Assembly: GCA_947258715.1 (NCBI GenBank)
Contig: CAMYJH010000029.1
Coordinates: forward strand, 1 to 61,707
Source: an uncultured Gammaproteobacteria bacterium
GTDB taxonomy: Bacteria > Pseudomonadota > Gammaproteobacteria > HK1
Direction: 5' to 3'
Length of the DNA stretch: 61,707 bases
In this document: positions 3,946-37,114 of the stretch, in pieces
How the letters are laid out: every line of letters starts with the position of its first letter
How positions within the stretch are numbered: the first letter of the stretch is position 1
Notes under the pieces: generated by a model
Databases searched by the model: none
Seen by the model: only the letters and a program-made list of their open reading frames with translations
Told to the model about the DNA's origin: nothing
Translations under genes and position numbers: made by a program

Positions 3946-4950
3946 TCACGCCATGTATGCGCTTTTGTATTGTTCCAGTATTCGAATGTAATTGCCGCGT
4001 TTAAACGCCGTCGGATCGGCGACGTTTTGTTCGCTCATGGAACCCTTCATCTGCTCGATCGACGCGTACCCTCGTGCCTCCATCCACTCCTCGACATCAT
4101 GCAGCAGACGTCCGGCGTAGCTTATCCCGTTCTTCAGCAGCGCAGATGTGGTCATGACGGCGTCGGCGCCCGCCATCACGTACTTGATGATCTCGGTGGC
4201 ACTGTGGACGCCTCGCGTCGCAGCCAGTGAGGCGCGCACTCGGCCGTGTAGCAAGGCGATCCAGGTAAGCGGGAGGCGGATCTCCGAAGGCTCGCTGAGC
4301 CCCAGACTGAGGGAGACTTCGAGGCGGTCAATATCGAAATCGGGCTGGTAAAAGCGGTTGAACAGCACCAGCGCGTCTGCGCCGGCTTCATCCAGGCGGC
4401 GCGCCATGTTGCCGAAGGCGCTGAAGAACGGGCTCAGCTTGAGCGCCACCGGGATCGCTACCGCCCCCTTGACGCGCCTGAGGATTTCCACGTATCGCTC
4501 TTCGACCTCTCTGCCCGTGGTCTCGATGTTGGCAGGTATGTAGAAAACGTTGAGCTCAATCGCGCTCGCGCCCGCCTCCTCCATGCGCTTGGCGTAATCG
4601 ATCCAACCCTCGTTGGTAAGACCGTTGAGACTGGCGATAACCGGGATATCGACGGCGTCGCGGGCGCGGCGAATGAGATCGAGATACTGCTCGGCTCCGA
4701 ATTGAAAATCCTCTACCTCTGGGAAGTAGCTCAAGGCTTCACCGAAGCTTTCCGCGCCGTAGCTGGTCAAGTGCGTCATCGCCTCTTCCTCGTAGCGAAT
4801 TTGTTCCTCAAAGAGCGAGAACATCACCACCGCTGCAGCGCCGGCGTCCTCTAGTCGCTTGATGTTGGCAACATCCTCGGACAGAGGTGATGCCGATGCA
4901 ACGAGGGGGTTGCGCAGCTCCAGGCCCATGTAGCTTGTCTTAAGATCCAT
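3946..4950 (-). CDS. dihydroorotate dehydrogenase / dihydropyrimidine dehydrogenase PreA-like TIM-barrel flavoprotein (no Fe-S domain)
   Basis: MDLKTSYMGLELRNPLVASASPLS... (class-1 DHOD/DPD N-terminal motif). RBS GGAGT before ATG 4950; the upstream in-frame extension is rejected. Last gene of the nifJ operon. Confidence 0.65.
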   Translation of the reverse strand: MDLKTSYMGLELRNPLVASASPLSEDVANIKRLEDAGAAAVVMFSLFEEQIRYEEEAMTHLTSYGAESFGEALSYFPEVEDFQFGAEQYLDLIRRARDAVDIPVIASLNGLTNEGWIDYAKRMEEAGASAIELNVFYIPANIETTGREVEERYVEILRRVKGAVAIPVALKLSPFFSAFGNMARRLDEAGADALVLFNRFYQPDFDIDRLEVSLSLGLSEPSEIRLPLTWIALLHGRVRASLAATRGVHSATEIIKYVMAGADAVMTTSALLKNGISYAGRLLHDVEEWMEARGYASIEQMKGSMSEQNVADPTAFKRGNYIRILEQYKSAYMA

Positions 4951-4994
4951 AACTGACTCCTTCCGACTATGCCGCTTTCTGCTGCGACGTCGGT

Positions 4995-7900: not shown

Positions 7901-8573
7901 AAACGTCGGGGTTCTGCGCACTGCCCCGCATCACAGGTCGGTCAGGAGTGAGACCGCGCCCGCGGTGAGCGATGACCAGCGGGTCCGGAATCATTGCTCG
8001 GATGTCCTCATCCGATAAAAAGTCCAGCTTGTTGATCTCGTGGCTGGTTCGAAAGCCGTCGAAGAAATGAATGAAGGGCAGACGCGACTCGAGACTGCTT
8101 GCCTGGGCGATGAGCGCGAGGTCGTGGGCCTCCTGAACTGAGCTTGATGCAAGCATGGCCCAGCCCGTGGAACGGGTTGCCATGACATCCGAATGATCTC
8201 CGAAAATCGAAAGGGCCTGCGCCGCCAGCGAACGGGCCGCGACGTGGAATACCGTGGCCGTGAGCTCTCCCGCGATCTTGTACATGTTGGGGATCATGAG
8301 CAGCAGACCCTGCGAGGCAGTGAAAGTCGTGCTGAGCGCCCCCGTCTGCAGCGAGCCGTGCACCGCGCCCGCCGCCCCGGCTTCACTTTGCATTTCGACC
8401 ACGGCGGGTACGCAACCCCAGACGTTTTCCCGGCCTTCGCTGGCCCACTGGTCAGCATGCTCGCCCATCGGCGACGACGGCGTGATGGGATAAATCACGC
8501 ACACCTCGTTGGTTCGGTAAGCGATGCTTGCGGCGGCCTCGTTACCGTCGAGGGTGACTCGTTTTGCCGTCAT
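4995..8573 (-). CDS. nifJ: pyruvate:ferredoxin (flavodoxin) oxidoreductase, single-polypeptide PFOR
   Basis: About 1190 aa. MTAKRVTLDGNEAAASIAYRTNEVCVIYPITPSS matches the PFOR N-terminus. Two CxxCxxCxxxCP ferredoxin motifs are present mid-protein. RBS GGGAGAG upstream of ATG 8573. Confidence 0.9.
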   Translation of the reverse strand: MTAKRVTLDGNEAAASIAYRTNEVCVIYPITPSSPMGEHADQWASEGRENVWGCVPAVVEMQSEAGAAGAVHGSLQTGALSTTFTASQGLLLMIPNMYKIAGELTATVFHVAARSLAAQALSIFGDHSDVMATRSTGWAMLASSSVQEAHDLALIAQASSLESRLPFIHFFDGFRTSHEINKLDFLSDEDIRAMIPDPLVIAHRGRGLTPDRPVMRGSAQNPDVYFQARETVNPFYTQAPEIVQNVMERFADLTGRRYRLFDYFGDPEAERVVVLMGSGVETLRETVEHLNTRGDSVGVMQVRLYRPFSPSQFLKAVPDTVKAVAVLDRTKEPGATGEPLYQDVVAAFSEKRANGSLLGDSIPRVIGGRYGLSSKEFTPAMAKAVLDELAREQPKNHFTVGIRDDLSDTSLEYDPDFDVESEHTVRAVFYGLGADGTVGANKNSIKIIGEDDNIFAQGYFVYDSKKSGSRTVSHLRFGPQPIRSPYLIRSANFVACHQFGFLERPDMLSHAADGATLLLNSPHQADSVWDQLPCAAQKTIIDKQIRLFIIDAYRVARENGMGTRINTVMQTCFFAISGVLPRDEAIAKIKEAVQKTYGNKGEDVVRRNFEAIDQTLENLHQVVVASTVTSDRGVPEIVPATAPQFVRDVTAMMMAGRGDELPTSRLPEDGTYPTGTTRWEKRRISMFAPIWEPDICIQCGNCGFVCPHSVIRTKLFNQSQLDSAPTGFRSAPLSGRGFPDTRYTLQVYAEDCTGCALCVEVCPASSKEKSGFRAINMAPLEPVLDEVREGLQYFESIPDNDRSRIDFSTVRGVQYLTPLFEFSGACAGCGETPYLKLISQLFGDRMIVANATGCSSIYGGNLPTTPWSMNSEGRGPAWSNSLFEDNAEFGLGFRLTADAHRALAKKLLLKLQGELGSELVNALLQSPQQEESQIREQRVRVSALKSKLETLDSDDARRLLSLSNQFVRRSVWIVGGDGWAYDIGYGGLDHVLASGRDVNVLVLDTEVYSNTGGQMSKATPLAAVAKFATSGKPIAKKDLALQAISYGNIYVARVAMGANPQQTLLALREAEAYPGPSLILAYSHCIAHGINMQHGLRQQKLAVDSGHWPLVRYNPTLREKGSNPFLLDSQPPRVALKKYAYNEIRYRMLTRTHPREAERLMALAQENLQVKWRVYEEMATRGDPSFHFTREE

Positions 8574-8613
8574 CGGCGCTCTCCCGAAAATAACCAAAAT
8601 TCCGCGAGTGCGA

Positions 8614-10242
8614 TCATGCGGGCTCCGGAATCATCTCAATGGCGCCGCACGGACACTGCTCGAAACACACGGCGCATCCGGTGCATTTCTGGTAATCGAA
8701 GCGATATCGCTTGCCGGCGCCAAGCTTGATCACCGCGTTATCGGGGCAGGCGCCGAGGCAGGCATCGCACTCGAAACAGTTGCCGCAGGAAAGACAGCGG
8801 CGCGACTCGAATAGGGCCTCGTCTTCACCGAGTCCCTTGATCACCTCGTCAAAGCTGGTACGCCGAGCTTCGACGTCAATCTGCCTTTCGGCCTTTTTCA
8901 GCGCATCGGTGAAATACCAAACGTGCAGGCGGTCGTATTCCGCGAGCGGGTTCGGGGCTCGCTTTTCGTAACTGACTCCCTTCAGCCACGCGTTAATGTG
9001 GCGTGCGGCTTTTTTACCGTGTCCGACCGCGGTGGTGACGGTGCGTTCGGCGGGCACCATGTCACCGCCGGCAAAGATGCCGGGGCAACCAGTCATCATC
9101 TGAGCGTTGACATTTACGGTGCCGTCGGACTGAAACTCCACGCCCGGCACGCGGCGCAGAAAATCCGTATCGGTGCGTTGCCCGAGCGCCATGATGAGCG
9201 AATCCGCCTCCAGCGTTTCGACCTCTCCGGTGGGTACCGGTCGACCGTTTTCATTAATGCGCATGGCCTCGACTTTGAAAGTCGTGTGATCAATCTCCTT
9301 GATGGTGCGAAGCCAGTGGATCTTGACGCCCTCTTCGATGGCGCTTTCGGCTTCAAAGTCGTGTGCGGGCATGTGCGCCCTGTCACGGCGGTAGATAATG
9401 AGCGGCTCGTAGCCGAGACGCTTCACCGTGCGCGCGGTATCCATGGCCGTGTTTCCACCACCGTAAACCGCAACCCGGCGTCCCAGCTTCGGACGCTCGC
9501 CGCCTTCCACATCCCGCAAGAAGCTCAGGGCGTCGAGAATTTTGCCCGCGTCGCGGGCGGGAATGTCGGTGCGTTGACTCAGATGGGCTCCCACCGCGAC
9601 GAAGGCGGCGTCGAATCCGCCGGCCTCCTTTTCCGTCTGCAGGTCTTCTACCTTGTGCTCCAAAACGATGCGCACGCCTGCGTCCTCGATGCGCTGAACT
9701 TCTGAGTCGAGTATGTCTCGCGGCAGCCGGTACTTGGGAATGCCGAAGTGCATCATTCCGCCCGCCAGCGGGCCCGCGTCCCGGATCTCAACCTCATGCC
9801 CCAGTCGTGCGAGATGCCAGGCGCAGGAAAGTCCGCTTGGACCGGCGCCGACGATGAGAATTCGGTTTCCGCTTTGCGCGGCTGGTTTTGCCGAACTCCA
9901 CTTCTTGGCGATCGCCTGGTCTCCGAGGAAGCGCTCTACGGCATGTATCGCGACCGGCGAGTCGAGATGCATGCGGTTACAGAGATCTTCGCAGGGGTGA
10001 TAACAGACGCGCCCGTGGGTCGCCGGCAGCGGGTTGTCGTCCACGATTTGACGCCACGCATCCTCGAAGCGGTTCTGCTGCACCAGCGCGAGCCAGGCTT
10101 GAATATTCTCGCCGGCGGGACAGGCGTGGTTGCAGGGCGGCAGCAGGTCCACGTAACGCGGGCGCCGGCTGCGCTCGACGCCGGAGAAGCCGCCGTGGCG
10201 CAAATCCGGTGGCTGCGTCAGGTCGTGGTCGGGTCGACTCAT
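8614..10242 (-). CDS. GltD-like FAD/NAD(P)H oxidoreductase with C-terminal 2x[4Fe-4S] ferredoxin domain (NfnB/PreT-like)
   Basis: 542 aa. N-terminal Cys cluster (CNHACPAG...VCYHPCEDLC) and GAGPSGL Rossmann motif match the glutamate-synthase small-subunit family. The C-terminus carries CLSCGNCFECDACLGACP and CTGCAVCFEQCP. RBS AAGGGAGAA before ATG 10242. First gene of the operon with nifJ. Confidence 0.75.
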   Translation of the reverse strand: MSRPDHDLTQPPDLRHGGFSGVERSRRPRYVDLLPPCNHACPAGENIQAWLALVQQNRFEDAWRQIVDDNPLPATHGRVCYHPCEDLCNRMHLDSPVAIHAVERFLGDQAIAKKWSSAKPAAQSGNRILIVGAGPSGLSCAWHLARLGHEVEIRDAGPLAGGMMHFGIPKYRLPRDILDSEVQRIEDAGVRIVLEHKVEDLQTEKEAGGFDAAFVAVGAHLSQRTDIPARDAGKILDALSFLRDVEGGERPKLGRRVAVYGGGNTAMDTARTVKRLGYEPLIIYRRDRAHMPAHDFEAESAIEEGVKIHWLRTIKEIDHTTFKVEAMRINENGRPVPTGEVETLEADSLIMALGQRTDTDFLRRVPGVEFQSDGTVNVNAQMMTGCPGIFAGGDMVPAERTVTTAVGHGKKAARHINAWLKGVSYEKRAPNPLAEYDRLHVWYFTDALKKAERQIDVEARRTSFDEVIKGLGEDEALFESRRCLSCGNCFECDACLGACPDNAVIKLGAGKRYRFDYQKCTGCAVCFEQCPCGAIEMIPEPA

Positions 10243-10422
10243 GATTTCTCCCTTGGGGCACGCCCCCCGAATTCAGGAGCGAGCCTCGAGTTGGCGCAAG
10301 GGATATTGTCACCGGATCGGGGGGGACCTTAAAGTGACCGAGGTCAATGGAAGGGCGGGCAGAAATGAGGGCTCGGGGATGACTCATCCAGCTAACATTT
10401 CTTGGCTCAAAAGGCCTATCCT

Positions 10423-10436
10423 TTGACTTAGGTCAT
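10423..10436. promoter_or_regulatory. candidate CRP/FNR-family dyad TTGAC-N4-GTCAT in the divergent nifJ-operon / nfnAB promoter region
   Basis: TTGACTTAGGTCAT lies about 105 bp upstream of the nfnA-like start and 180 bp upstream of the gltD-like start. Near-identical to the motif at 18281-18294. Confidence 0.3.
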
Positions 10437-10539
10437 TGCCCGAGTGGCTGAGAAACGGGAGTGTTTTTCCCAACAGGCCCCGAGCGGGCGTGAAAAGGGT
10501 GGTTTTCGGTCGGCCAGGGCCGATCCAGATGGGATAGCA

Positions 10540-11406
10540 ATGTACGAAATCGTCGCCCGCGAAGATTTTTCCGACTCCACTTTCCTGCTGGAGGTGAAGT
10601 ACCCACTGCTTGCCAAGGCCGCAAGGCCCGGCCAGTTCGTGATCGTCATGTCAAACGCTGACGGCGAGCGAATTCCGCTGACTATCGCCGACTTCTCCCC
10701 CGAGCGGGGAACGGTCACCCTGGTGATACAGGCCGTGGGCAAGACGACCATGGAGATGCAACGACGCTGCATCGTGGGCAGCGCACTGTACGCAATGGTC
10801 GGTCCCATGGGTAAGCCGAGCGAAATCAGCAAGATGGGAAAGGTCGCTTGCGTAGGGGGAGGCCTCGGCGTGGCGCCGGTGTATCCCCAGGCCCGGGCAT
10901 TCAAGCAAAACGGCGCCTACGTGATCGGCATCGTCGGCTTTCGCAGCAGGGACCTGATCTTCTGGCAGCGGAAGTTCGAGGACGTTTGCGACGAGCTCAT
11001 TATCTGCACCGACGACGGTTCGGCGGGTATCAAGGGGCTGGTGACCGACGGGATCGCGATGGCTGTGGACAAGCATCCCGACATCGACGAGGTCATTGCC
11101 ATCGGGCCGCCGGTGATGATGAAGTTCTGCGCCGAGGCGACCCGCGCCCGCGATATAAAGACCACAGTCAGCTTGAACCCGATCATGGTGGACGGCACCG
11201 GCATGTGTGGTGGCTGTCGCGTGTCCGTCGGCGGCGAGATGCGTTTTTGCTGCGTGGACGGACCCGATTTTGACGGTCACCAGGTCGACTTCGATGAACT
11301 CATGCGCCGGCTGACGCGCTTTCGCGAGGACGAACGGGCCGCGCTGGAGCGCTGGCAGCGCAACCCGGGATGCCGCCTGGAACAAGAGCCGACCGCCAGC
11401 GAGTAA
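10540..11406 (+). CDS. nfnA: NfnA / PyrK-like FAD-[2Fe-2S] NAD(P)H oxidoreductase subunit (ferredoxin:NADP+ oxidoreductase alpha-like)
   Basis: MYEIVAREDFSDSTFLLEVKYPLL...; C-terminal [2Fe-2S] motif MCGGCRVSVGGEMRFCCVDGPDFDG typical of PyrK/NfnA/SudB. ATG 10540 is chosen over the GTG at 10444 by expected length (about 288 aa). Confidence 0.7.
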   Translation: MYEIVAREDFSDSTFLLEVKYPLLAKAARPGQFVIVMSNADGERIPLTIADFSPERGTVTLVIQAVGKTTMEMQRRCIVGSALYAMVGPMGKPSEISKMGKVACVGGGLGVAPVYPQARAFKQNGAYVIGIVGFRSRDLIFWQRKFEDVCDELIICTDDGSAGIKGLVTDGIAMAVDKHPDIDEVIAIGPPVMMKFCAEATRARDIKTTVSLNPIMVDGTGMCGGCRVSVGGEMRFCCVDGPDFDGHQVDFDELMRRLTRFREDERAALERWQRNPGCRLEQEPTASE

Positions 11407-11439
11407 CTTCGCCGCCGACGGGCGGGGCGGAGACTGGAA

Positions 11440-12939
11440 ATGGCAAAGAAGACGATCCGAAACATACCGCAGGAGCGCACCGCGATGCCGGTTCAGGAGC
11501 CGAAGGCGCGGGTGCGCAACTTTTCGGAGGTGGCTCTCGGTTACTCTCTGGCTGAGGCGCTCAACGAGGCGGAGCGCTGCATCATGTGCCCGCAGGAGCC
11601 GTGTGTGAAAGGCTGTCCCGTGGAGATCGACATACCCGGGTTCATTCAAAAGATTTGTGACCAGAATTTCCGTGGCGCTTACGACGTGATCACGGATACG
11701 AACCTGCTGCCGGCCATCTGCGGCCGGGTTTGTCCCCAGGAGTCACAGTGCGAGCAGGTATGCATCGTGGGTGACCATTTGGAACCCGTCGCCGTAGGCC
11801 GGCTGGAGCGATTCGTCGGCGACATGGCGGTTGCCGAGGGCTGGAGCAACGAACCGGACATCGAGCCGAACGGCCGCCGGGTGGCCATCGTCGGCGCGGG
11901 ACCTGCCGGCATCGCCTGCGCTGCGGATATGGCGAAGGCGGGCTGCGAAGTGGTTATCTACGAAGCCCTGCACCGTCCCGGCGGTGTGCTGAGCTACGGG
12001 ATCCCGGAGTTCCGTCTCCCCAACGAAATAGTCGACGATGAATTCGGCAAAGTCATCGAGCTGGGCGTCAAGGTGGAGTGCAACACCCTCGTGGGGCGGC
12101 TATTCACCATCGAGCAGCTTCGCGAAAAGATGGGATTCGACGCGGTGTTCATCGGGACCGGCGCCGGTTACCCCACGTTCATGGGCATACCGGGAGAGTC
12201 GCTGAACGGCGTGCTTTCGGCCAACGAGTTTCTCACCCGCTGCAACCTGATGCAGGCCGGGGAGTTTCCCTACAAGGACACGCCCCTGCACATGGGGCGC
12301 AAGGTTGCCGTCATCGGTTCCGGCAATACCGCCATGGATGCGATGCGCGTATCACTGCGCCTGGAGGCGGAGGAGGTACACTGCCTGTACCGCCGCAGCC
12401 GCGCCGAGAGCCCGGCGCGGGCGGAGGAGGTCGACCACGCCGAAGAGGAGGGTGTCATCTTCCACTGGCTGACGGCGCCGGTGGAGATCCTCGACGACGG
12501 CAACAACAACGTGCGGGCGCTGCGCTGCATTCGGATGGAATTGGGCGAGCCGGACGACTCCGGCCGAAGGCGTCCTGTCGCCATCGAAGGCAGCGAGTAC
12601 GAGTTCGAGGCCGACATGGTGATCTATGCCATCGGCACAAACGCCAACCCAATCATCGGTCAGACCTCCAATCTGGAGCTCAACAAGTGGGGCTATATCG
12701 AGGCCAACGAGCAGCAGCGAACCTCGATCGCAGGCGTATTCGCCGGAGGGGATATTGTCACCGGAGCGGCCACCGTAATCCTGGCCATGGGCGCCGGAAG
12801 ACGGGCCGCGCGCAGCATGAAGGCCTATCTCGGTATTCTCGACCCGGTGGAGATGGCTGTCTCGGACCCGGAGCGCCCCCGGATATTCGGCATCGACGCG
12901 CGACAGAGGAACTACCGCAGGGTGCGGGTTGCCGCTTGA
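11440..12939 (+). CDS. nfnB: NfnB / GltD-like NADPH oxidoreductase subunit with N-terminal 2x[4Fe-4S]
   Basis: 499 aa with CIMCPQEPCVKGCP and CGRVCPQESQCEQVC, then GAGPAGIACA and a second GSGNTAMD nucleotide-binding motif. Paired with the upstream NfnA-like gene (33-bp gap). Confidence 0.75.
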   Translation: MAKKTIRNIPQERTAMPVQEPKARVRNFSEVALGYSLAEALNEAERCIMCPQEPCVKGCPVEIDIPGFIQKICDQNFRGAYDVITDTNLLPAICGRVCPQESQCEQVCIVGDHLEPVAVGRLERFVGDMAVAEGWSNEPDIEPNGRRVAIVGAGPAGIACAADMAKAGCEVVIYEALHRPGGVLSYGIPEFRLPNEIVDDEFGKVIELGVKVECNTLVGRLFTIEQLREKMGFDAVFIGTGAGYPTFMGIPGESLNGVLSANEFLTRCNLMQAGEFPYKDTPLHMGRKVAVIGSGNTAMDAMRVSLRLEAEEVHCLYRRSRAESPARAEEVDHAEEEGVIFHWLTAPVEILDDGNNNVRALRCIRMELGEPDDSGRRRPVAIEGSEYEFEADMVIYAIGTNANPIIGQTSNLELNKWGYIEANEQQRTSIAGVFAGGDIVTGAATVILAMGAGRRAARSMKAYLGILDPVEMAVSDPERPRIFGIDARQRNYRRVRVAA

Positions 12940-12963
12940 GGCCGAGAGTCGCTGGCAGCGGTT

Positions 12964-15255
12964 TCAGTCGAAAGCTGCCGCCCGCTTCTTAAGCTCCTCC
13001 AGTCCCGGCTCGCTCGGGTCCAGCGGCTGGCCCGGGTGGATGATGCAGACCGGGCAGTTCTCGGCCGCTTCCACCAGTTCCCTGTAGGTCCCGGCGGTGA
13101 CGTCCTTGATGAAGGCCTGCTTCGCGTCGTTGTAACCGAACATCGCGGCGTTGCGATCGATGCAGTCGTCGCAGGTGGTGCAGAACTCGGTGTCGATGAA
13201 GGCCTGGTCGCTCGGTGTCGAGACTTCGGGTGCCGGTGCCTCTTCAATCTCTTCCGGCGCCTCCGCCTCGGCGGGTACCGGCTCCGCCATCGGTTCCTCG
13301 GCCTGAGCCGGGCGCGTTAGATCCAGCTCTTCGATGGCGCGCTGATGTTCTTCTTCGAGTCGTGCGCGCTGCTCCTCGAGCAGCCTAATGGCGTGAGAGT
13401 TCCGGACCCCGCCCAGCTCCTGGAGCCTTTTCCAGCTGGCCAGGCATTTGCGTGCAAACGGCACCAGGGCGCGTCGCACGACTACCCGATGCACGCGGTC
13501 TTCGGAATCTATCAGGTATACGAAAGGGACCTTATCGATGCTTCCTTGTCGCGAAAGGGTAAGATATTCAGCCATTGGCACCATGTTCGCGTGCCAACGG
13601 GACTGCGGCACGATGACGAAGTGCTGCCGGGACCGCGGCTCGAGCATCAAGAAATCAACGCAGGTAAAAACGAGATTCTCGCTGGCCTCCTGGCTATCCG
13701 CGGTTTCGTAGTCGTAGCAATGCTCGGGCCAATCACGATCCGGTTGAGGACTTCCTCGGAGGGAGTAACGGGATGCCAGGTCGTCACCGCGATCCGGGTC
13801 GTAAACGAAACTCGGAAAGGCGCGGGACTCGACCGCGCTGGCGCAATTCAGATAGTGGGGGACGCTAGCCGGTGGTACATCGGGTCCAGTGTAGATACAG
13901 AAAAGCGCCGGTCCTTCGCGGCCTAGACCAGCCACGATTTCCGCCGCAAGCTGTGGCAGATGCGAGGCAGCCGTTTGCATCACGAAAGCCTCTCCCATGG
14001 AGGTCGCCATGGCGGCAATCTGCTGCGTCCACTCGGTAGACGATCCGGGGGGCGCATTGGAAGAGGTACTCACGGAAAGCTGCTTTATTTCCAGAAGCAC
14101 TTTAACCGGCATATCCGATCCGAGAATTTCAATCAGGGTTGATTTTTCCGCATCGCTCAAGTTTTCGCCGTCCAGAAAGACCAGCAAGGGTGGTAGAGCC
14201 CGGTAGTCCTCGGAGGTGAGCTGCTCGGGGCCGAATGTCTTGAAAAAGGTATCGTGCCGTTCTTCGTGGTAACGGTTCTCGAGTTCGAGACTGGCCACCC
14301 TTATCGCCCGAAGCAGCTCGACTCTGCGTTTGAGCTCAGTGTCGAAAAGTTCGACGGCTTCGGCACAGCTGTGACACGTGCCTGCGCGTCGCCGGTCGCG
14401 CCTGCGTCGTTTGCCGTTACCGCCCGGCGATGGGAGAAGCGCGCGTTCCGATTTGAGCACCTTGCTCGCGACGCGCAGGCGCTTGAGGCGTTTCGCCGGC
14501 ATGGGGCGGGATTGACTCGCGCCCCGCAGGAGAGTGGAGAGGGCTTTGAAGTCGATGCCTCCGGCGTGTTCGCCTCCCATGGCAGCCTCGAGCGCCTCCG
14601 GCGACGTCGACTTGGGAGATCTCGCGCGCTCCGATTCCAGCACCTCGGACAGTCGGGCGATGAGTTCTTCGACCGCGACGCGTTCGCTTTCGGCCCGCTG
14701 CGCCTGGATCGGCCACCAGGCATGCTCGAATATCTGGCGTGCGCTGTGGGGCCCGCAGGAGATCAATCGCCCGTCATGCGCGAGATCGGCTTTGACAGAA
14801 TCGAGGCTGGCTCGAATCTGATCCGGGCGTTCACTCCGCGCAACGACCTGCTCCGTCGCCAAGGTCCAGAGCTCCGACAGGCGCTGCGCCCGCTTTCCCT
14901 TGGTAAGACGTTTGATTGACGCCTCCAGCCGGTAGACGTGTGCCCGCAGGGCCTCCGCTTCCGCGCCCGACACCGCCACTTGGTCCAGGATGCCGTCGAT
15001 GATACTGGCCAACGAGATGACGGGCGTATCGGCTCGGTCCTCTACCAGTAACACGGGAAAGTCGTGGCGGACCGATTCGAGATCCAGGTAGGCACCGAGA
15101 AGGGCCGGAACCAACTCAGGTTGTAGCTGCTTACCCTCGCGTTGCTTTTCTTCCGGTTCGGCCAGGTGAATGCGCAGGAGATCCGTCAAGCCCTCGTCGT
15201 GAAGGACTGCCGCAAGCGGGTCCAAACGGTCGCTGGTTGTACGACCCTGCAACAT
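12964..15255 (-). CDS. large (763 aa) uncharacterized protein with a C-terminal single-cluster ferredoxin domain, co-transcribed with korAB
   Basis: RBS AAGGA 6 nt before ATG 15255, 39 bp downstream of the korB stop. C-terminus FIDTEFCTTCDDCIDRNAAMFGYNDAKQAFIKDV...ENCPVCIIHP has the CxxCxxC...CP pattern of small single-[4Fe-4S] ferredoxins. I recognise no family in the N-terminal ~700 aa, which contain a basic KRRRRDRRR patch. Confidence 0.7.
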   Translation of the reverse strand: MLQGRTTSDRLDPLAAVLHDEGLTDLLRIHLAEPEEKQREGKQLQPELVPALLGAYLDLESVRHDFPVLLVEDRADTPVISLASIIDGILDQVAVSGAEAEALRAHVYRLEASIKRLTKGKRAQRLSELWTLATEQVVARSERPDQIRASLDSVKADLAHDGRLISCGPHSARQIFEHAWWPIQAQRAESERVAVEELIARLSEVLESERARSPKSTSPEALEAAMGGEHAGGIDFKALSTLLRGASQSRPMPAKRLKRLRVASKVLKSERALLPSPGGNGKRRRRDRRRAGTCHSCAEAVELFDTELKRRVELLRAIRVASLELENRYHEERHDTFFKTFGPEQLTSEDYRALPPLLVFLDGENLSDAEKSTLIEILGSDMPVKVLLEIKQLSVSTSSNAPPGSSTEWTQQIAAMATSMGEAFVMQTAASHLPQLAAEIVAGLGREGPALFCIYTGPDVPPASVPHYLNCASAVESRAFPSFVYDPDRGDDLASRYSLRGSPQPDRDWPEHCYDYETADSQEASENLVFTCVDFLMLEPRSRQHFVIVPQSRWHANMVPMAEYLTLSRQGSIDKVPFVYLIDSEDRVHRVVVRRALVPFARKCLASWKRLQELGGVRNSHAIRLLEEQRARLEEEHQRAIEELDLTRPAQAEEPMAEPVPAEAEAPEEIEEAPAPEVSTPSDQAFIDTEFCTTCDDCIDRNAAMFGYNDAKQAFIKDVTAGTYRELVEAAENCPVCIIHPGQPLDPSEPGLEELKKRAAAFD

Positions 15256-15293
15256 TACTCGTCCTTCAAAATCATGACTTAAGGCCTTCTAGC

Positions 15294-16260
15294 CTAGGAT
15301 TCCGGCAGCACCGTAAATCTGTCGAACTCCCGCTCCAGGGCAGCGATCTTGGCGCTCACCGGTAGATGCTTCTCACGCCGATGCAGGTCCTCGTAGCAGG
15401 GGACGGAGCCGTCGCGATAGAGGATGCCTACGGAAATTTTTTCCCCCACCTCCGCCAGCGCCCGAGCCCGTCCCAGGTCAGAAGGATCATGCTCCTCGCG
15501 ACTGGAGAAAGGACGCCTCATCGGGATGGATGCCGTTGGGGTGGGTCAACAACCGAATCCGCTCGGGGTTCTTGATGTACGGATCGAAGTGACCCGGCAG
15601 GTAGTGCGGGCACCTCTGCAGAACACTGACGAAGGACAGGCCTCGGTGGAGAAACGCCTGATGGATGATGTCGTACAAAATGGCGGGCAGCCAATCGACC
15701 GCCTGGGCCACGAAGGAAATGTTGGACATGCCGAGCGTCGCCGACAGCGCGTTCAGCGGCTCTAAGGGGGCGCCACGGGGTGACGTGTTGGTCCGCAGGC
15801 CCTTCGGCGAGGTGGGTGATACCTGGTTCTTGGTCAGGCCGTACACCCGATTGTCGTGCATGATCACCGTCATGTTCATGTTGTAGCGTACGGCGTGCAG
15901 CCAGTGTCCAGCACCGATGCTGCAGCAGTCGCCGTCACCGGTGTTGACGAACACGTGCAGGTCGGGCCGCTTGATCTTGATGCCTTCGGCCAGCGGCAGC
16001 GCGCGCCCGTGCAAACCGTGGAAGCCGTACGTGCCCATGTAGTGAGGCAGCCGGGAGGCGCAGCCGATCCCCGAGACGAATACGGTTCTCTCGGGCGGGA
16101 GCTGCTCCTCGGCGCAGAGTTTCTGCAGCGCAGTGAGAATGGCGTTGTCACCGCAGCCATGGCACCAGCGCGACACGGCCCCTTCATAGTCATGCAGGAT
16201 GTGCGCGTCTTCCTCCAGATCCGCCACGCTGGTTGGCAGTCTATCGATGAAATCAGACAT
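15294..16260 (-). pseudogene. korB: 2-oxoglutarate/2-oxoacid:ferredoxin oxidoreductase beta subunit (TPP-binding), apparently interrupted by a +1/-1 frameshift near 15490-15520
   Basis: ORF 15487-16260 (...GDGDCCSIGAGHWLHA...TKNQVSPTSPKG...) matches KorB up to ...HPNGIHPDEA. The C-terminal ...REEHDPSDLGRARALAEVGEKISVGILYR... continues in another frame (ORF 15294-15521). The two ORFs overlap across an approximately 22-nt stretch GCGTCCTTTCTCCAGTCGCGAG. Confidence 0.6.
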
Positions 16261-18184
16261 TCTTGCTCCCCGTTTCTAGTTTTCGGCGAATCACCTGGAC
16301 CACGGATCCGGGCTTGAGGGGTTGTCCCTTGACCTCGGACCAGCAGTCCACGTCTATCAAATAGCGCGCCCGCAGCAGCCAGGCGAGGTTGGAGTAGCGT
16401 CGGCTTTCCGCGCTAATGTATGCGTCGTCGACGCTGTCAGACCAGCTCATCTCGACCGTCATCACCTTGGCAAACCGCTTCAGGATTTCACCGATCCCCG
16501 ACGCCATGGGCTGCAGATAGGTGAGGTGCAGCGAGGAGACGGCGTATCCGTCGGCACGGGCGCGGTCGACTGCTTCCTCGATGACGCCCCGGGTGCTTCC
16601 CCAGCCGATGATCAGCAGTTCGCCTTCCGGAGCCCCGTACACGGGCGGCGCGGCGAGCGTCTTCTGGAAGCTGGCCAGCTTCAGGCTGCGATAGCGGAGG
16701 CCCTCTTGGTTAATCTCGGGATCGTAGGCGACCCGGCTCGAGCGATCATGCGCCAATCCAGTAAGGGTGTGCATGCCACCGGGCTGGCCGGGTATGAAGC
16801 GTCTCCGCAGCCCCGTCCGGTCATCCCACTCGTACGGGCGGTCGCCTTCGGGGATCTCGTTCTGGTCGGAGGCTACCGCGTACCACTCTTGCTTCGGCTG
16901 GGGCCGCACGAACAGCTGCTGAGCCGTCGCCAGGTTGGCATCACTCAACAGCACCACCGGAAGGTTGAAGGCTTCGGCGATGTGGCGTGCAGTGATCACA
17001 AGGTAGAAACACTCCTCGATATTGGCGGCGGCCAGTACTACCCGGGGCGCGTCACCGTGGGTTCCGAAAATGGCCTGCAGGAGGTCGCCTTGCTCCACCT
17101 TGGTCGGTTGCCCGGTGCTCGGGCCGCCTCGCTGAACGTTTATCACCACCAGCGGGATTTCGGCCATCGCGGCAAGCCCGATGAGCTCCTGCTTGAGCGA
17201 CATCCCCGGTCCCGAGGTGATGGTGACGGAACACTTGCCGGCATAGGACGAGCCGATGGCGAAAGCGCAGGCCGCGATTTCGTCTTCCGCCTGGTGAACG
17301 AATCCGTCCACGTGCTCGAAGATCTCGCTCAGGTAGTGTGCAGCCGACGTCGCGGGCGTGATCGGATACATGGCGCATACCTCCATACCGGAGGCCATGA
17401 TGCCAAGCGCCAGCGCGGTGTTGCCGTTTACCACGATCTGGGCCTTCTTGGTTCGCGAACCCGGAATTGTGAAACGGAGATCCAGATTCTCGAGCGCCCA
17501 CGAATGCCCCGCTTCCAGGAGCGTATGGTTCCGATCGACCACCTCTTTGTCCTTGGTTCGGAACACGAACGCGACCTGCTTGCGTGCGAGCTTCAGATCC
17601 ATGCTGTAAATCGCGCTTAGCATCCCCAGCACGAACATGTTCTTGCCCAGCGCGGGATTGGACGTGTACTGGAAGCAGACCTGCTCCATCGGGATCTCGT
17701 AAACCCGATAGCCTTCGCCAATCAATTCGTCGTAGACCCTGGTGTAAGCGGCAACGATTTCCGCATCGCGGTGGAATCGCCACTTGTTCTCGAGAAGGAT
17801 GACCCCGCCTTGCTTCAGCGCGCCGGCTTGCAGCCGACCACGCAATACCTGCTCGTTGAAGGCCACGGCCAGATCGGCCTCGTCCCCTCCGTTGGTCACG
17901 CGGTGTGAGCCGATCCGAATGCGGTTGCCGCTGGCACCCGCAATGCTGCGAGGCGGCGGTTCGATCTCGGCTGGGATGATCTCGACGGTCCAGATCCCGT
18001 TGCCCATATTGGCGGCAATGCTGGCGAAAGACTGACCGCATTTCTGGGCGCCTTCACCGGAGTCACTGATGACCTCGATGACGTGCTCCCGAATCCGTAA
18101 CGGTGCCGCCGGGACCGGTGGACCGGGGCGCTCCGTGACGGACTGCTCCGGGGCTTCGCTTTCCCCGGTGGAAAAATTATTCAT
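16253..18184 (-). CDS. korA: 2-oxoglutarate/2-oxoacid:ferredoxin oxidoreductase alpha subunit (fused gamma-alpha domains)
   Basis: 643 aa. N-terminal gamma-like domain (AVAFNEQVLRG...), then alpha domain motifs (NGNTALALGIMASGMEVCAMYPITPATS...GPGMSLKQE). Overlaps the korB start by 8 nt. Confidence 0.85.
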   Translation of the reverse strand: MNNFSTGESEAPEQSVTERPGPPVPAAPLRIREHVIEVISDSGEGAQKCGQSFASIAANMGNGIWTVEIIPAEIEPPPRSIAGASGNRIRIGSHRVTNGGDEADLAVAFNEQVLRGRLQAGALKQGGVILLENKWRFHRDAEIVAAYTRVYDELIGEGYRVYEIPMEQVCFQYTSNPALGKNMFVLGMLSAIYSMDLKLARKQVAFVFRTKDKEVVDRNHTLLEAGHSWALENLDLRFTIPGSRTKKAQIVVNGNTALALGIMASGMEVCAMYPITPATSAAHYLSEIFEHVDGFVHQAEDEIAACAFAIGSSYAGKCSVTITSGPGMSLKQELIGLAAMAEIPLVVINVQRGGPSTGQPTKVEQGDLLQAIFGTHGDAPRVVLAAANIEECFYLVITARHIAEAFNLPVVLLSDANLATAQQLFVRPQPKQEWYAVASDQNEIPEGDRPYEWDDRTGLRRRFIPGQPGGMHTLTGLAHDRSSRVAYDPEINQEGLRYRSLKLASFQKTLAAPPVYGAPEGELLIIGWGSTRGVIEEAVDRARADGYAVSSLHLTYLQPMASGIGEILKRFAKVMTVEMSWSDSVDDAYISAESRRYSNLAWLLRARYLIDVDCWSEVKGQPLKPGSVVQVIRRKLETGSKNV

Positions 18185-18280
18185 TCGTTTCCACTTGGCC
18201 TTGGGGCTCCCGAGATCCGATATGAGCCACCAATCCTAAGTTATTGTTCCAAATAATAGGAATCCGACCATAAGCGCATC

Positions 18281-18294
18281 ATGACCTGGATCAA
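18281..18294. promoter_or_regulatory. candidate CRP/FNR-family dyad (minus-strand reading TTGATCCAGGTCAT) about 100 bp upstream of korA
   Basis: Matches the TTGAY-N4-GTCAT pattern also found at 10423-10436. Confidence 0.3.
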
Positions 18295-18639
18295 CAAGAC
18301 TCTGAAGATCACGTCGGATACAGTGTTTGTTTGAAATCGTTGAGTTCGACAGCCGCGAATGCATGAATCACCTGGAGTCAGGCAGCTAACCGTAAATGGC
18401 GGCTAAGCGATGGCTGCGTCTCTGGTGATTCGTCGGCTGCAAACCGACCGGGCGAACTACCTACGGTTGCATCATCTCCTGGACCCCAAGCTCGTTGTCG
18501 TTTCACCTGCCGAGGCAAAGAATCCCTACCTCAACAGAGAATAGCAGGCGAACGCGTTGCCCGCCGCGAGCAGGGGAAACAGGTTGAAACGACCGGCTTT
18601 GAAAGGATGCCGGCGCAACGAGCGTCGCCCAAGGCGAAT

Positions 18640-19050
18640 TTGGACCGTTCTTCGCTCCCGATCCATGGCGACGGGCGTCGCTCAGCGACGTGTGGGGAAT
18701 CTATTTCTGCCTCGGTCTCACCGCAGCGGCATCGGTGCCGCTCGTCGGCATGGTCTCAGCCCCAAATGTGCATCTCTACTGGTCCGGAATCGGGAGCGTG
18801 CTCGGGACCCGGCCGCTCGTCTATATCGCCGCCGCTTTCCCGGCGGCTGCGCTATCAGATTGGCTGGGACCGGGTCGCGTCTTGCCGGTCGCTGCGCTGC
18901 CGATGGGTTTCTCCGCTGCCCCGAGGGCACCGGCGACGGGACACTGCAGACTGATTTCCGCTGTCGGCGTTTTCGCGCTTGGCGGAGCGACGGTATCCAT
19001 ACGGGGAAAGGCATCGGGGCAGAGCAGTATCTCTCACCCTGACCAGTTTC
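18640..19050 (+). pseudogene. degenerate 5' fragment of an MFS transporter gene, paralogous to the N-terminus of the intact gene at 20101-21408
   Basis: Translation WGIYFCLGLTAAASVPLVGMVS...RPLVYIAAAFPAAALSDWLGPGRVLPVAALPMGFSAAPRAPATGHCRLISAVGVFALGGATVSI aligns with WTIYFCFGLTAAAMAPLVGVIS...WPLVYIAAAIPGGAVLDRFGVGRALLVAVLLMAFSGALRALATGHLSLFLAVGVFGLGGPLVSI (about 55% aa, about 70% nt identity). No C-terminal remainder follows, and it abuts the xni 3' end. Confidence 0.6.
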
Positions 19051-19075
19051 TGCCGATCGCCCCTTTCCGGCGCCA

Positions 19076-19849
19076 TCAAGCCGACGGCAATCGCAGCTGA
19101 TTGAGGTTGATACCAATGCTCACGTCGGTCTTCAGGCGTACCAGGGCGACGGACAGTCGCGCCTGAGTCGCTTCGGCGATCAGCGCTTTCCCCGCTCTGC
19201 CCGGAATTTCCTCCGCCTTCGCCAACATATTTTCCAGCGTGCCGTGCTCGTTGATCAGCTTTGCCGCGGTGCGCGGGCCAATCGATTTGACCCCGGGGAT
19301 GTTCAGCGACTTATCGCCCATCAGCCCGAGCACATCGGTGAGCTGCGACGGGGTAACGCCGAACTTCTCTTTTATATATACGCCATCCAATTCGCGACCC
19401 GCGAAATGATCGCGGATCCGGATCCTGTCTCCCGCCAGCTGGCACATGCTTTTGTCTGTAGAAAGAATCACCGCTTGCCCATCGTGAGCGGCTATTTTTA
19501 CAGCGATGGTCGCTATAACGTCGTCGGCTTCTACATTGGGCACGGATACGCAACGAACGCCGAGATTCTCGATCGCTTCTTCAACCCGATGCAGGTTCAA
19601 TCGGAGCGGATCAGGCATTGGCGGGCGATCTCGCTTGTAGTCTGGAAACATCTCGTGTCGCCAGTTTCTGCCGCCGGCGTCGAATACGCACACCGCGTGC
19701 GTCGGCGTGAGCTCATCCAGGGCGCGGCGTATGGAATTCAGCGTCGAATCCAGCGCGCCGTCGAAATGCTCGGGTGAATGCTCGTTTCCCGGTACCGCGG
19801 CATATACCCGTCGCACCAGGTTCAAACCGTCGATGATCAGAACTTTCAT
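19076..19849 (-). CDS. xni: flap endonuclease Xni (5'-3' exonuclease IX family)
   Basis: MKVLIIDGLNLVRRVY...VCVFDAGGRNWRHEMFPDYK...SVPNVEADDVIATIA...LSTDKSMCQL. PIN-like metal-binding residues and H3TH region are typical of Xni/ExoIX. Confidence 0.85.
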   Translation of the reverse strand: MKVLIIDGLNLVRRVYAAVPGNEHSPEHFDGALDSTLNSIRRALDELTPTHAVCVFDAGGRNWRHEMFPDYKRDRPPMPDPLRLNLHRVEEAIENLGVRCVSVPNVEADDVIATIAVKIAAHDGQAVILSTDKSMCQLAGDRIRIRDHFAGRELDGVYIKEKFGVTPSQLTDVLGLMGDKSLNIPGVKSIGPRTAAKLINEHGTLENMLAKAEEIPGRAGKALIAEATQARLSVALVRLKTDVSIGINLNQLRLPSA

Positions 19850-19928
19850 TGTGGAAAGACAACGAGAAGTCGGCGTAAGTATTTAATCGCCCGAGCGGTA
19901 AGCATGGATCTCGTTTTGTTTCTCGCCC

Positions 19929-20087
19929 TTAGGGAAACTCTGGATAATTCCATCCCTGGAATTTTCAGAGCCGGCAAGTGAAAACGCGGTTTCCACTTGC
20001 CTCATGAATCCAATGACTTACAGTCATCGGATTCGGCGGCGCATCCCTGCTTAGCTAAGGAAGGTCTGATAAATCAGATCTTCCTTA
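19929..20087 (+). repeat. repeat family A copy 1: about 155-bp multi-hairpin MITE-like element, flanked by TTA
   Basis: About 95% identical to 22531-22689. Internal hairpins GGCAAGTG-N-CACTTGCC, GAATCCAATGAC/GTCATCGGATTC, GCTAAGGAAGGTCTGATAAATCAGATCTTCCTTAGC. Imperfect termini GGAAACTCTG / CAGA(T/C)CTTCC. Confidence 0.65.
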
Positions 20088-20100
20088 GCTGTCGGCAGCA

Positions 20101-21408
20101 ATGGCAAAGGTTAACATCCGAGGTCTTAGTCGAATAACACCGTTTACATATCAGCACCATCGGGTTTTGCGCGAATTCATGCTCGCTCGAGTTCCCCAAG
20201 GCGATTCTTCGTTTGCGCAGCCCAGGCGGCGATGGTTGCTCCTGTTGGGCGTGTGGACAATCTATTTTTGCTTCGGTCTAACCGCGGCGGCTATGGCGCC
20301 GCTGGTCGGAGTAATATCGTCTGAGCTCGAGCTCTCTCGTACCGCGATGGGGAGCATCCTCGGCGCCTGGCCGCTGGTTTATATCGCCGCCGCCATCCCG
20401 GGGGGTGCGGTGCTGGATAGGTTCGGCGTGGGACGCGCCTTGCTGGTCGCTGTTCTTTTGATGGCGTTCTCCGGTGCCCTGAGAGCACTGGCCACGGGAC
20501 ACTTAAGCCTGTTCCTGGCCGTCGGCGTCTTCGGGCTCGGCGGACCGCTTGTGTCCATCGGCGGACCAAAACTCATTAGCCATCACTTCGCCGCGCGCGA
20601 GCGCGGACTCGCCATCGGCCTCTACACCACCGGTCCCGCTCTCGGCGGCATTACCGCGCTTTCGCTCACCAACAGCGTTGCCATGCCGGTGCTTGATCGA
20701 GACTGGCGCGCGGTGCTGCTGCTTTACGCCTGCTTTACGCTGGCTGCCGCGTTGTTGTGGTTCGCCATTGGCAGGAGCGAGGGCCGGGATGGGTCGGCGG
20801 GCTCGGAAAGATTAAACACATCTCAACTCGCGGTGTTCGCACGGCTGCTGCGATTGCCTGTCGTGCGGATCACGCTGCTCATGGGTATCGGCATCTTCTT
20901 CTTCAACCACGCCCTCAATAACTGGTTGCCCGAAATTTTGGCTGCAAGCGGGATGAGCCCCGTCCAGGCCGGGAACTTGGCGGCCATCCCGACTGCCGTC
21001 GGCGTGCTGGGCGCGCTCATCGTTCCGAGATTCGCGGTGGGACGAAGGCGCGTCGCTGTCATGATCGCGCTGTTCATCTGCGCCGGGGTCGCCACCCTGT
21101 TGATACCCACAAACGGTTGGACGCTGACGCTTGGACTCTCTTTGCAGGGCGTTGCCCGCGGGGCGATGATGGCCGTGGCGCTATTGGTTTTGATGGATTC
21201 CAAGCAAATTGGCCAGGCGCAAATGGGCGCCGCCGGCGGCTTGTTTTTCACCGCCGCTGAGGTCGGAGGTGTGCTGGGCCCGCTCACCGTCGGTTGGCTT
21301 GCCCAGCGCGGCGGCGGATTCGAAAGCTCTCTATGGATGCTGTCCGGCGTTTGCGTCGCCCTGATCCTGCTCGCTCTGGCGTCGGCCAGGGGGCGCGGCG
21401 AAGAATGA
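20101..21408 (+). CDS. MFS transporter (CynX/NimT-like); true start may be internal (e.g. 20179)
   Basis: 435-aa ORF, 12 TM segments, MFS motifs (PLVYIAAAIPGGAVLDRFG, GLGGPLVSIGG). No convincing RBS at either candidate start. The ORF begins 14 bp after repeat A1. Confidence 0.7.
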   Translation: MAKVNIRGLSRITPFTYQHHRVLREFMLARVPQGDSSFAQPRRRWLLLLGVWTIYFCFGLTAAAMAPLVGVISSELELSRTAMGSILGAWPLVYIAAAIPGGAVLDRFGVGRALLVAVLLMAFSGALRALATGHLSLFLAVGVFGLGGPLVSIGGPKLISHHFAARERGLAIGLYTTGPALGGITALSLTNSVAMPVLDRDWRAVLLLYACFTLAAALLWFAIGRSEGRDGSAGSERLNTSQLAVFARLLRLPVVRITLLMGIGIFFFNHALNNWLPEILAASGMSPVQAGNLAAIPTAVGVLGALIVPRFAVGRRRVAVMIALFICAGVATLLIPTNGWTLTLGLSLQGVARGAMMAVALLVLMDSKQIGQAQMGAAGGLFFTAAEVGGVLGPLTVGWLAQRGGGFESSLWMLSGVCVALILLALASARGRGEE

Positions 21409-30489: not shown

Positions 30490-30520
30490 GCTTCGTCTCC
30501 CATGTTACTGAGCCGCTGTT

Positions 30521-36254: not shown

Positions 36255-36255
36255 C

Positions 36256-37068: not shown

Positions 37069-37114
37069 GGGCCAAGCGCCCAGAAACTGGCGCGCAGCCC
37101 GATCTCGGGGTTGA

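Follow-up and report, generated by a model that had tools for sequence, protein, structure and literature searches.

A predicted pseudoenzyme of PFOR descent with a tethered ferredoxin, probably an electron shuttle between KorAB and NfnAB

Results

Genes at the locus

We analyzed a stretch of 61,707 nucleotides (the window) from an uncultured Gammaproteobacteria bacterium (assembly GCA_947258715.1, contig CAMYJH010000029.1). On its minus strand the window carries, in this order, korA and korB, encoding a 2-oxoacid:ferredoxin oxidoreductase (OFOR), and the gene of a 763-amino-acid (aa) protein, here called X, which ends in a ferredoxin domain; an nfnAB-like gene pair is located on the plus strand next to X (Table 1). 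Protein X and its relation to these neighbours are the subject of this work.

ORF calling and translation showed that X is encoded by a single open reading frame (ORF) of 763 codons plus stop, running from the ATG at 15255 to the stop codon at 12964; a plus-strand reading of 12964-15255 was rejected, as it contains many stops. The motif AGGA is present 6 nt 5′ of the ATG, and the start lies 38 nt past the TAG at 15296-15294, where the korB frame closes. An earlier interpretation made from the letters of the window (the sequence-only reading) had the coordinates, the length, the ribosome-binding site and the start after korB right; its gap of 39 bp compares with the 38 nt given here, and the gene is on the minus strand. 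A promoter and terminator scan of 10200-19100 gave signals no better than those of shuffled sequences, with no terminator found between korB and X, and an Rfam search of 10000-20200 gave no match.

The sequence-only reading took korB for one gene; it is, in fact, not one intact frame, due to an 8-nt deletion. A 257-aa ORF runs to the TGA at 15489-15487, and a tail of 68 aa, which holds PFO_beta_C, continues in another frame to the TAG at 15294. In the relatives L090 and L004 (X 90% and 79% identical to the window's) korB is intact and has 324 aa. The 8 nt missing from the window read TGCGACGA in L090. The deletion represents either an assembly error or a recent pseudogene, the module then decaying in this genome. 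As for KorA, its closest solved relative is the 2-oxoglutarate enzyme of Magnetococcus marinus (OGOR, 6N2N_A).

The nfnB gene is convergent with X, with 24 nt between the two stop codons. Its product matched NfnB of Thermotoga maritima (4YLF_B) with 557.6 bits and NfnI-L of Pyrococcus furiosus with 501 bits. In the product of nfnA the family match starts at aa 33, so that the true start is probably located downstream of the GTG. By curated thresholds and by comparison with solved NfnAB, both window subunits belong to the NfnAB family. Electron bifurcation (NADPH with ferredoxin and NAD+) by this pair may be expected from the family; some homologues in the Nfn family are not bifurcating (PMC6405883).

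Ferredoxin domain and linker of X

The AlphaFold (AF2) model of X, built from a 39-sequence alignment, has a mean predicted local distance difference test score (pLDDT) of 83.3 and a predicted template modelling score of 0.74; disorder is confined to aa 1-10, 37-44, 279-288, 397-407 and 648-681. Within aa 1-686 there was no Pfam or NCBIfam match, and in the whole protein no match to the Pfam families POR_N, POR or TPP_enzyme_C even at E 0.1; a sequence-profile search of PDB with X returned matches to the ferredoxin part only.

The sequence-only reading had recognized a C-terminal ferredoxin module, CTTCDDC...ENCPVC, and this assignment stands. Pfam Fer4_13 matches aa 687-740 above the family cut-off (E 1.4e-5; 26.1 bits against 24.5 bits), a match (PF13370) which most X homologues share. 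As for conservation of the cysteine motif in orthologues, on which that reading had made its proposal depend, the four residues C692, C695, C698 and C734 are invariant in 83 of 83 homologues. The pattern CxxCxxC...CP, with Cys at the second position, is that of a [4Fe-4S] cluster, not of a [3Fe-4S] one. The domain has the ferredoxin fold; its best solved match and closest solved sequence relative is ferredoxin I of Desulfovibrio africanus (profile E 2.9e-7). We consider the domain a bona fide member of Fer4_13, with a cluster that is predicted to be redox active at low potential. A ferredoxin of this type is the physiological partner of pyruvate:ferredoxin oxidoreductase (PFOR) in D. africanus.

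The ferredoxin is the most conserved segment of X (0.81 versus 0.57-0.65 for the body); the linker that precedes it is the least conserved. Across the 83 homologues the linker has 25-49 aa, consists of Ala (35%), Pro (18%) and Glu (13%) to a large extent, and is net negative in all of them. A flexible Ala/Pro linker of this kind suggests a mobile carrier.

We also looked at two features of the body. The poly-basic patch KRRRRDRRR and the Ala/Glu-rich segments mentioned in the sequence-only reading are indeed present; the patch, however, is located in a low-confidence loop and is not conserved. It was rejected as a functional motif, the median net charge of the loop being -1 over the 83 sequences. 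Outside the ferredoxin three cysteines are kept in 76-81 of 83 homologues: C167 (14755-14757) and C297 (14365-14367), both within aa 1-325, and C604 (13444-13446), all on the minus strand. They could represent a relic metal site or a new one, or a redox switch.

Descent from PFOR and loss of cofactor sites

The sequence-only reading knew no family for the ~700 aa in front of the ferredoxin. With respect to Pfam and NCBIfam this was correct; still, BLASTP, profile and fold comparisons all led to PFOR, which is the sister enzyme of KOR and thus belongs to redox proteins, not to an unrelated family. Full-length PFORs appeared as the weakest matches in the first search for X homologues. In BLASTP, aa 366-546 of X aligned with positions 957-1145 of PFOR (E 5e-13); in hhalign, aa 326-550 aligned with the C-terminal half of PFOR domain VI with 99.1% probability (E 1.9e-18). 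A looser hhalign alignment reached the PFOR C-terminus, where W608-KRLQELGG of X corresponds to NWRRLQELAG of PFOR. In Foldseek, PFORs took all the top places for the X model, ahead of OFOR beta subunits and other thiamine diphosphate enzymes, and X shares the homologous fold of the pyrophosphate-binding domain (domain VI or the beta subunit). Origin of X from the neighbouring KorB was considered and rejected, as the X alignment, compared with 62 KorB sequences in hhalign, reached a probability of 0.4%. To judge from these alignments, X derives from the PFOR type and not from the beta subunit encoded next to it.

The family has long members as well (see below), which aligned with full-length PFOR over 1,052 columns (100% probability, E 1.6e-45). 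Because the long members align with PFOR end to end, the family descends from a whole PFOR. By the same alignments the 763-aa form found in the window is colinear with PFOR domains IV, V and VI; domains I (pyrimidine-binding), II and III are absent from it.

The cofactor sites of PFOR did not survive in X. Among 83 homologues, position 362, equivalent to the Asp of GDG, is occupied by Arg in 21, Asn in 20 and Asp in 12; position 395, equivalent to the Asn of the thiamine pyrophosphate (TPP)/Mg motif, by Glu in 58, Gly in 12 and Asp in 7, with Asn not among the six commonest residues. X has, therefore, no TPP/Mg2+ motif GDG...N. PFOR C1093, the fourth cysteine of the proximal cluster (cluster A), aligns to a Pro. 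Besides C167, C297 and C604 there is no conserved Cys outside the ferredoxin, thus neither the proximal cluster nor the two clusters of domain V have their ligands in X. A PFOR-like proximal cluster in X was rejected, since the ligand positions are not Cys. We characterize X as a predicted pseudoenzyme descended from PFOR: the fold of the C-terminal half was kept, the TPP site and the Fe-S ligands were lost, and a ferredoxin domain with one predicted [4Fe-4S] cluster was gained at the C-terminus.

Family size and long forms

Far from being an ‘orphan’, as the sequence-only reading had it, X belongs to a large family. A word-indexed search found 58 full-length X clusters at 90% identity, down to 29% identity. 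A profile search among 1.84 billion representatives produced 3,046 matches, 1,418 of them at E<=1e-30 (these 1,418 representatives are clusters at 50% identity); the best 150 all scored >640 bits. With one genome scanned per species, an X relative was present in at least 485 species of at least 7 phyla. The hosts listed include Alpha-, Beta- and Gammaproteobacteria, Myxococcota, Actinobacteria (Gaiellaceae, Acidimicrobiia, Ilumatobacter), Chloroflexia, Acidobacteria and Verrucomicrobiia, with Tropicimonas sp. IMCC6043 as a cultured strain among them. In the sources X homologues are annotated as ‘ferredoxin’, ‘hypothetical protein’ or ‘YjdI’. Close KorA clusters number >8,000.

Long members of the family have 1,236-1,460 aa, with X corresponding to their C-terminal part. 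Their domains I-III are present only as degenerate remnants (two long forms gave weak PFOR_II matches), and the YPITPS and GDG motifs are lost. At three loci (L084, 9450-15537; L085, 6571-16288; L086, 762-4886) such a degenerate whole PFOR with ferredoxin is located directly after korA-korB. An RnfB-like protein of 288 aa (PF04060 FeS and a dicluster domain) follows the long forms; at L085 the next gene encodes another PFOR-like protein (1,527 aa or more), with weak POR_N and PFOR_II matches and one Fer4 motif.

No NfnAB was present at the long-form loci; therefore the NfnAB link is not universal. As the long forms keep korA-korB and do not keep nfnAB, the link between korAB and X is constant, and the downstream redox partner depends on the lineage.

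Gene linkage across genomes

We considered 82 distinct loci found through X; a locus was informative for korAB if at least 3.3 kb of upstream sequence was available, and for nfnAB with at least 5.9 kb. The pair korA-korB was located directly 5′ of X, on the same strand, at 65 of 65 informative loci, without exception; the gap between korB and X is 4-60 nt, or else the genes overlap. An nfnAB-like pair adjoined at all 57 informative loci, upstream in 56 and convergent in one, and nfnA is conserved beside nfnB in all module loci. In three X homologues with 35-38% identity, all on large contigs, the gene tables have nfnA-nfnB-korA-korB-X on one strand.

Linkage found through X could be checked from the side of its partners. 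At loci chosen by KorA similarity alone, X followed korB and nfnAB was alongside in three of three cases, one of them ordered korA-korB-X-nfnA-nfnB. Co-occurrence of X with korAB, a check named in the sequence-only reading, has no exception in the sample and extends to the long forms. The reverse test with NfnB was made on metagenome loci: at 69% identity or above, nfnB adjoined korA/korB/X in 23 of the 25 loci with enough flank, the two exceptions being fragments at contig starts; among NfnB homologues at 45-62% identity, none of 14 adjoined korAB-X. The NfnB of the window falls into the subclade that adjoins korAB-X.

The placement of nfnAB varies (upstream, downstream or inverted); the order korA-korB-X is fixed. 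X is the only ferredoxin-type carrier encoded in the conserved module: no free small ferredoxin gene was found in it, either in the gene tables of the three homologues or at the three loci chosen by KorA.

Furthermore, when loci L001-L083 were compared across phyla (Proteobacteria, Actinobacteria, Chloroflexia), KorA, KorB, NfnA and NfnB of the same operons were 62-74% identical and X 35-40%. Such a pattern suggests that the module spread horizontally as a unit, with the constraint on X relaxed.

Other features of the window

Table 1. Annotated features of the module and of the adjacent redox genes (window coordinates)
Feature	Coordinates	Strand	Evidence
GltD-like flavoprotein, 542 aa, C-terminal 2x[4Fe-4S] domain	within 3946-10242	-	PRK12771, 753 bits
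Full-length PFOR, 1,200-aa ORF	within 3946-10242	-	TIGR02176, 1,770 bits
Dihydroorotate-dehydrogenase-like protein	within 3946-10242	-	PRK07565, 482 bits
NfnA/NfnS-type subunit, 320-aa ORF from GTG	10444..11406	+	PRK06222, 380.7 bits (cut-off 220); DHODB_Fe-S_bind domain
NfnB/NfnL-type subunit, 499 aa	11440..12939	+	TIGR01316, 605.5 bits (cut-off 471.75)
Protein X, 763 aa: PFOR-derived body, flexible linker, C-terminal single-cluster ferredoxin	12964..15255	-	ORF, AF2 model, large conserved family
X aa 746-763 and stop: conserved tail PGKPxNPxEPGLEELxKRAxxF	12964..13020	-	Mean column conservation 0.77; predicted helix 752-760
X aa 685-745: predicted single-[4Fe-4S] ferredoxin domain, CxxCxxC...CP	13021..13203	-	Pfam Fer4_13; 4 invariant Cys
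X aa 647-684: disordered acidic Ala/Pro/Glu-rich linker	13204..13317	-	pLDDT <50 at aa 648-681; composition in 83 homologues
X aa 326-620: homologue of C-terminal half of PFOR domain VI (pyrophosphate-binding fold) to PFOR C-terminus; TPP/Mg motif gone	13396..14280	-	
X aa 282-290: poly-basic patch KRRRRDRRR	14386..14412	-	Sequence; overlaps pLDDT <50 segment 279-288
X aa 1-325: mostly helical, colinear with PFOR domains IV-V and first half of VI, without their Fe-S ligands	14281..15255	-	Long-form/PFOR alignment, low-stringency hhalign
korB, 2-oxoacid:ferredoxin oxidoreductase beta subunit, split by 8-nt deletion near 15500	15294..16260	-	TPP_enzyme_C in 257-aa ORF, PFO_beta_C in out-of-frame tail
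korA, fused gamma-alpha subunit, 643 aa	16253..18184	-	POR, POR_N, PFOR_II; TIGR03710, 498.7 bits, above cut-off

Beside the module there is a second redox trio on the minus strand (3946-10242; Table 1), and the same trio follows the module in the same order in L004 and L090. It may represent a PFOR system linked to pyridine nucleotides.

In the long region upstream of korA, between korA and a 5′-3′ exonuclease gene, we saw a fragment similar to the N-terminal part of a major facilitator superfamily (MFS) transporter (18690-19040, plus strand), with 56% aa identity to aa 51-161 of an intact MFS gene at 20101-21408 (E 1e-31); the fragment looks like a decayed partial duplicate. A cluster of Bat/MoxR type occupies 26421-37155 on the minus strand (BatA and VWA, DUF58, MoxR AAA_3 ATPase, an 830-aa tetratricopeptide repeat protein, DUF4159). 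Two ORFs in this cluster, of 337 and 753 aa, had no Pfam match; neither had a 1,263-aa ORF just downstream of it (23116-26907). The genes at 39632-61686 are mainly related to amino acids and 2-oxoglutarate: gamma-glutamyl transpeptidase, IlvD/Edd dehydratase, PutA (1,413-aa ORF), Glu/Leu dehydrogenase, aminotransferase, acyl-CoA synthetase and a Na+/dicarboxylate-type symporter. Amino-acid catabolism around the module would fit, loosely, an oxidative role.

Discussion

Proposed role of X

KorAB, as an OFOR, and NfnAB both use ferredoxin as a substrate. For Nfn enzymes see PMC6405883; OFORs of two subunits contain a single cluster but do not have a ferredoxin domain of their own, and two-subunit KorAB has no delta-type Fe-S module (PMC5020499). 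We propose that the PFOR-like body of X docks on two-subunit KorAB, and that the tethered [4Fe-4S] ferredoxin would be an arm which swings to the KorB cluster and picks up electrons there. In this lineage it would hand them on to the co-encoded NfnAB-type flavoprotein, at the ferredoxin site of NfnB. Oxidation of 2-oxoglutarate would thus be coupled to reduction of NAD(P)+, or oxidation of NADPH to reductive carboxylation, with no free ferredoxin pool involved.

A KorAB-dedicated scaffold, whose swinging-arm [4Fe-4S] ferredoxin would pass electrons between KorAB and NfnAB, is the reading of X that we favour; we put its probability at about 0.6. Since the gene of X always adjoins korAB, and in most cases a dedicated nfnAB as well, X probably serves the KorAB-NfnAB enzyme set as an integral electron shuttle. 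The domain structure, the descent from PFOR, the loss of cofactor motifs, the invariant ferredoxin cysteines and the strict linkage to korAB and to a dedicated NfnAB subclade are direct observations; a physical association of the proteins, the path of the electrons, the direction of the reaction and its substrate are inferred. The sequence-only reading had proposed an undescribed dedicated acceptor, donor or adaptor for KOR; the present data speak for such a function as a prediction. What it did not see was that the body comes from PFOR, how large the family is, that equally conserved NfnAB-type partner genes lie at 10444-12939, and that korB is frameshifted.

Several observations weigh against an arm between KorAB and NfnAB. 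A ferredoxin of 60 aa would suffice as a carrier, yet a cofactor-less body of ~680 aa is kept; the low identity of X in comparison with its partners (35-40% versus 62-74%) is not what one expects of a tightly docked subunit; and nothing in a shuttle role accounts for the conservation of C167, C297 and C604. The long forms do without NfnAB and stand beside the RnfB-like and the second PFOR-like proteins instead. With korB frameshifted in the window, the module may be inactive here, unless the assembly is wrong. 2-Oxoglutarate is a presumed substrate; KorAB matches only the 2-oxoacid:acceptor superfamily model. In favour of the shuttle, on the other hand, are the only expression data that we found: in the Riftia symbiont (Candidatus Endoriftia persephone) the transcripts of KorA(3), KorB(3) and of the next gene, a ‘PFOR-like ferredoxin’ (WP_006475426.1), decrease jointly when sulfide or oxygen is limiting (PMC11636981, Suppl. 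Table 5); this protein is probably a member of the X family.

Alternative explanations

One might go further and speculate that KorAB, X and the dedicated NfnAB form one self-contained megacomplex, which the ferredoxin arm would never leave, with low-potential electrons moving between 2-oxoglutarate/succinyl-CoA and an NfnAB that confurcates or bifurcates electrons by means of flavin. Overall, the reaction would read 2-oxoglutarate + CoA + NADH + 2 NADP+ <-> succinyl-CoA + CO2 + NAD+ + 2 NADPH, and the pseudo-PFOR scaffold would let many aerobic and microaerobic bacteria run an ‘anaerobic’ OFOR and an Nfn without a free ferredoxin pool exposed to O2. We regard this extension as tentative, and its failure as the somewhat better bet. 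At the other end, X could serve KorAB as its dedicated ferredoxin and yet supply the general cellular pool or other acceptors, without any KorAB-X-NfnAB channel and with NfnAB only balancing free ferredoxin, NADH and NADPH. Such a role would agree with the long forms, which keep the korAB linkage and have an RnfB-like neighbour in place of NfnAB, with the varying position and orientation of nfnAB next to a fixed korA-korB-X, and with the fact that classical NfnAB works with soluble ferredoxin (PMC6405883). It is unlikely, though, given that the module NfnAB makes a distinct subclade (beside korAB-X in 23/25 cases versus 0/14 for other NfnB), that NfnAB adjoins X at 57/57 informative loci across phyla, and that the module has no free small ferredoxin gene.

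More doubtful still is a mainly structural, protective or regulatory subunit of KorAB in aerobes (one that shields it from oxygen, senses redox state or assists in assembly), with the cluster or the three conserved cysteines of the body acting as a sensor or switch and not as an electron conduit. Most of X is a cofactor-less scaffold, C167, C297 and C604 are conserved, and many hosts come from aerobic lineages, such as Ramlibacter, Xanthobacteraceae, Gaiellaceae and Tropicimonas; there is even a precedent, as the PFOR of D. africanus has a C-terminal extension with a disulfide which protects it from oxygen. However, the ferredoxin, and not the body, is the most conserved part of X, it is of the same type as the partner of D. 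africanus PFOR, its linker suggests a mobile carrier, and both neighbouring enzymes need ferredoxin. That X itself might be an active 2-oxoacid oxidoreductase or a catalytic subunit, i.e. a divergent PFOR, is highly improbable: the clear homology to domain VI (to the whole enzyme in the long forms), and the label ‘possible PFOR’ which the Riftia study gave to a gene that is probably an X homologue, have to be set against the absence of domains I (Pyr), II and III from the 763-aa form, the non-conserved TPP/Mg positions, the missing PFOR cluster ligands, the lack of any POR_N, POR or TPP_enzyme_C match, and the loss of YPITPS and GDG in the long forms too. Incidental linkage, X being a generic ferredoxin fusion or a mis-called ORF, would fit public annotations that say only ‘ferredoxin’ or ‘hypothetical protein’; it is effectively refuted by a full frame conserved in hundreds of species of at least 7 phyla, by the confident fold and by the linkage to korAB at 65/65 loci.

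Significance

Two-subunit KorAB is common in aerobes, with Mycobacterium tuberculosis as the textbook case (PMC2773412). Nfn-type enzymes are viewed as essentially anaerobic, and their presence in aerobes was called surprising (PMC6405883, PMC6085437). The very abundant five-gene module of KorAB, X and the dedicated NfnAB offers a testable answer to two questions at once: which low-potential electron carrier aerobic KorAB uses, and what Nfn does in aerobes. If the shuttle reading is true, the module would represent a novel architecture among OFORs, with a pseudoenzyme put to a new use; it could link the tricarboxylic acid cycle directly to NADPH supply, or support NADPH-driven CO2 fixation into 2-oxoglutarate. 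In addition, proteins now annotated merely as ‘ferredoxin’ receive a family definition.

Comparison with known systems

In our literature search we found nothing on a KorAB-Nfn-X system or on the X family, save the ‘PFOR-like ferredoxin’ of the Riftia symbiont, which is a row of a transcriptome table given without analysis of domains, distribution or function (PMC11636981). AadN of Rhodopseudomonas palustris was considered as a described counterpart and rejected; it is a fused Nfn homologue which replaces KorAB instead of partnering with it. In our view the novelty lies in the accessory subunit, of a type not described before in OFOR systems as far as our literature search goes.

With the single-polypeptide PFORs of Moorella thermoacetica (6CIN) and D. 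africanus (2C3Y) X shares the part from domain VI to the C-terminus (aa 326-620), including the motifs AVESRAFP..YDP and W..LQELGG. Unlike PFOR, it lacks the TPP/Mg motif, the ligands of cluster A and the 2x[4Fe-4S] motifs of domain V; on the other hand, it has a C-terminal linker and a single-cluster ferredoxin which PFOR lacks. Ferredoxin I of D. africanus and other Fer4_13 ferredoxins are free proteins of 6-7 kDa, whereas the ferredoxin of X is covalently tethered to a 680-aa scaffold and is followed by a conserved 20-aa C-terminal tail.

In concept X resembles the delta subunits of OFORs (PorD, KorD, OorD) and domain V of PFOR, being an Fe-S module, co-encoded with catalytic subunits, of the kind that relays electrons outward from the TPP-proximal cluster. 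Delta subunits, however, are small, rigidly built in, and hold two clusters by means of two CxxCxxCxxxCP motifs; X has one cluster, a ferredoxin of another type and a flexible linker. In X we found a single motif and no dicluster Pfam match, along with the operon shared with catalytic subunits (65/65). As for coupling to pyridine nucleotides, the nearest functional precedent is probably KorABC of Azoarcus evansii, reportedly a 2-oxoglutarate:NADP+ oxidoreductase, said to have been described by Ebenau-Jehle et al. in 2003, which achieves it via a single flavoprotein subunit. There, as in the X system, an enzyme of KorAB type would be coupled to pyridine nucleotides via a co-encoded redox protein; in the X system, unlike in KorABC, the coupling would go via X and a two-subunit NfnAB-type enzyme, and X has no flavin or NAD(P) domain.

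The E2 components of 2-oxoacid dehydrogenase complexes carry lipoyl swinging arms on flexible Ala/Pro-rich linkers. The likeness to X, which we offer as an analogy only, would consist in a small carrier domain held on a scaffold by a flexible Ala/Pro-rich linker of 25-50 residues, in a system that handles the same substrates. The proteins and the chemistry are unrelated: the lipoate of E2 carries an acyl group together with electrons, whereas the Fe-S cluster of X would carry one electron.

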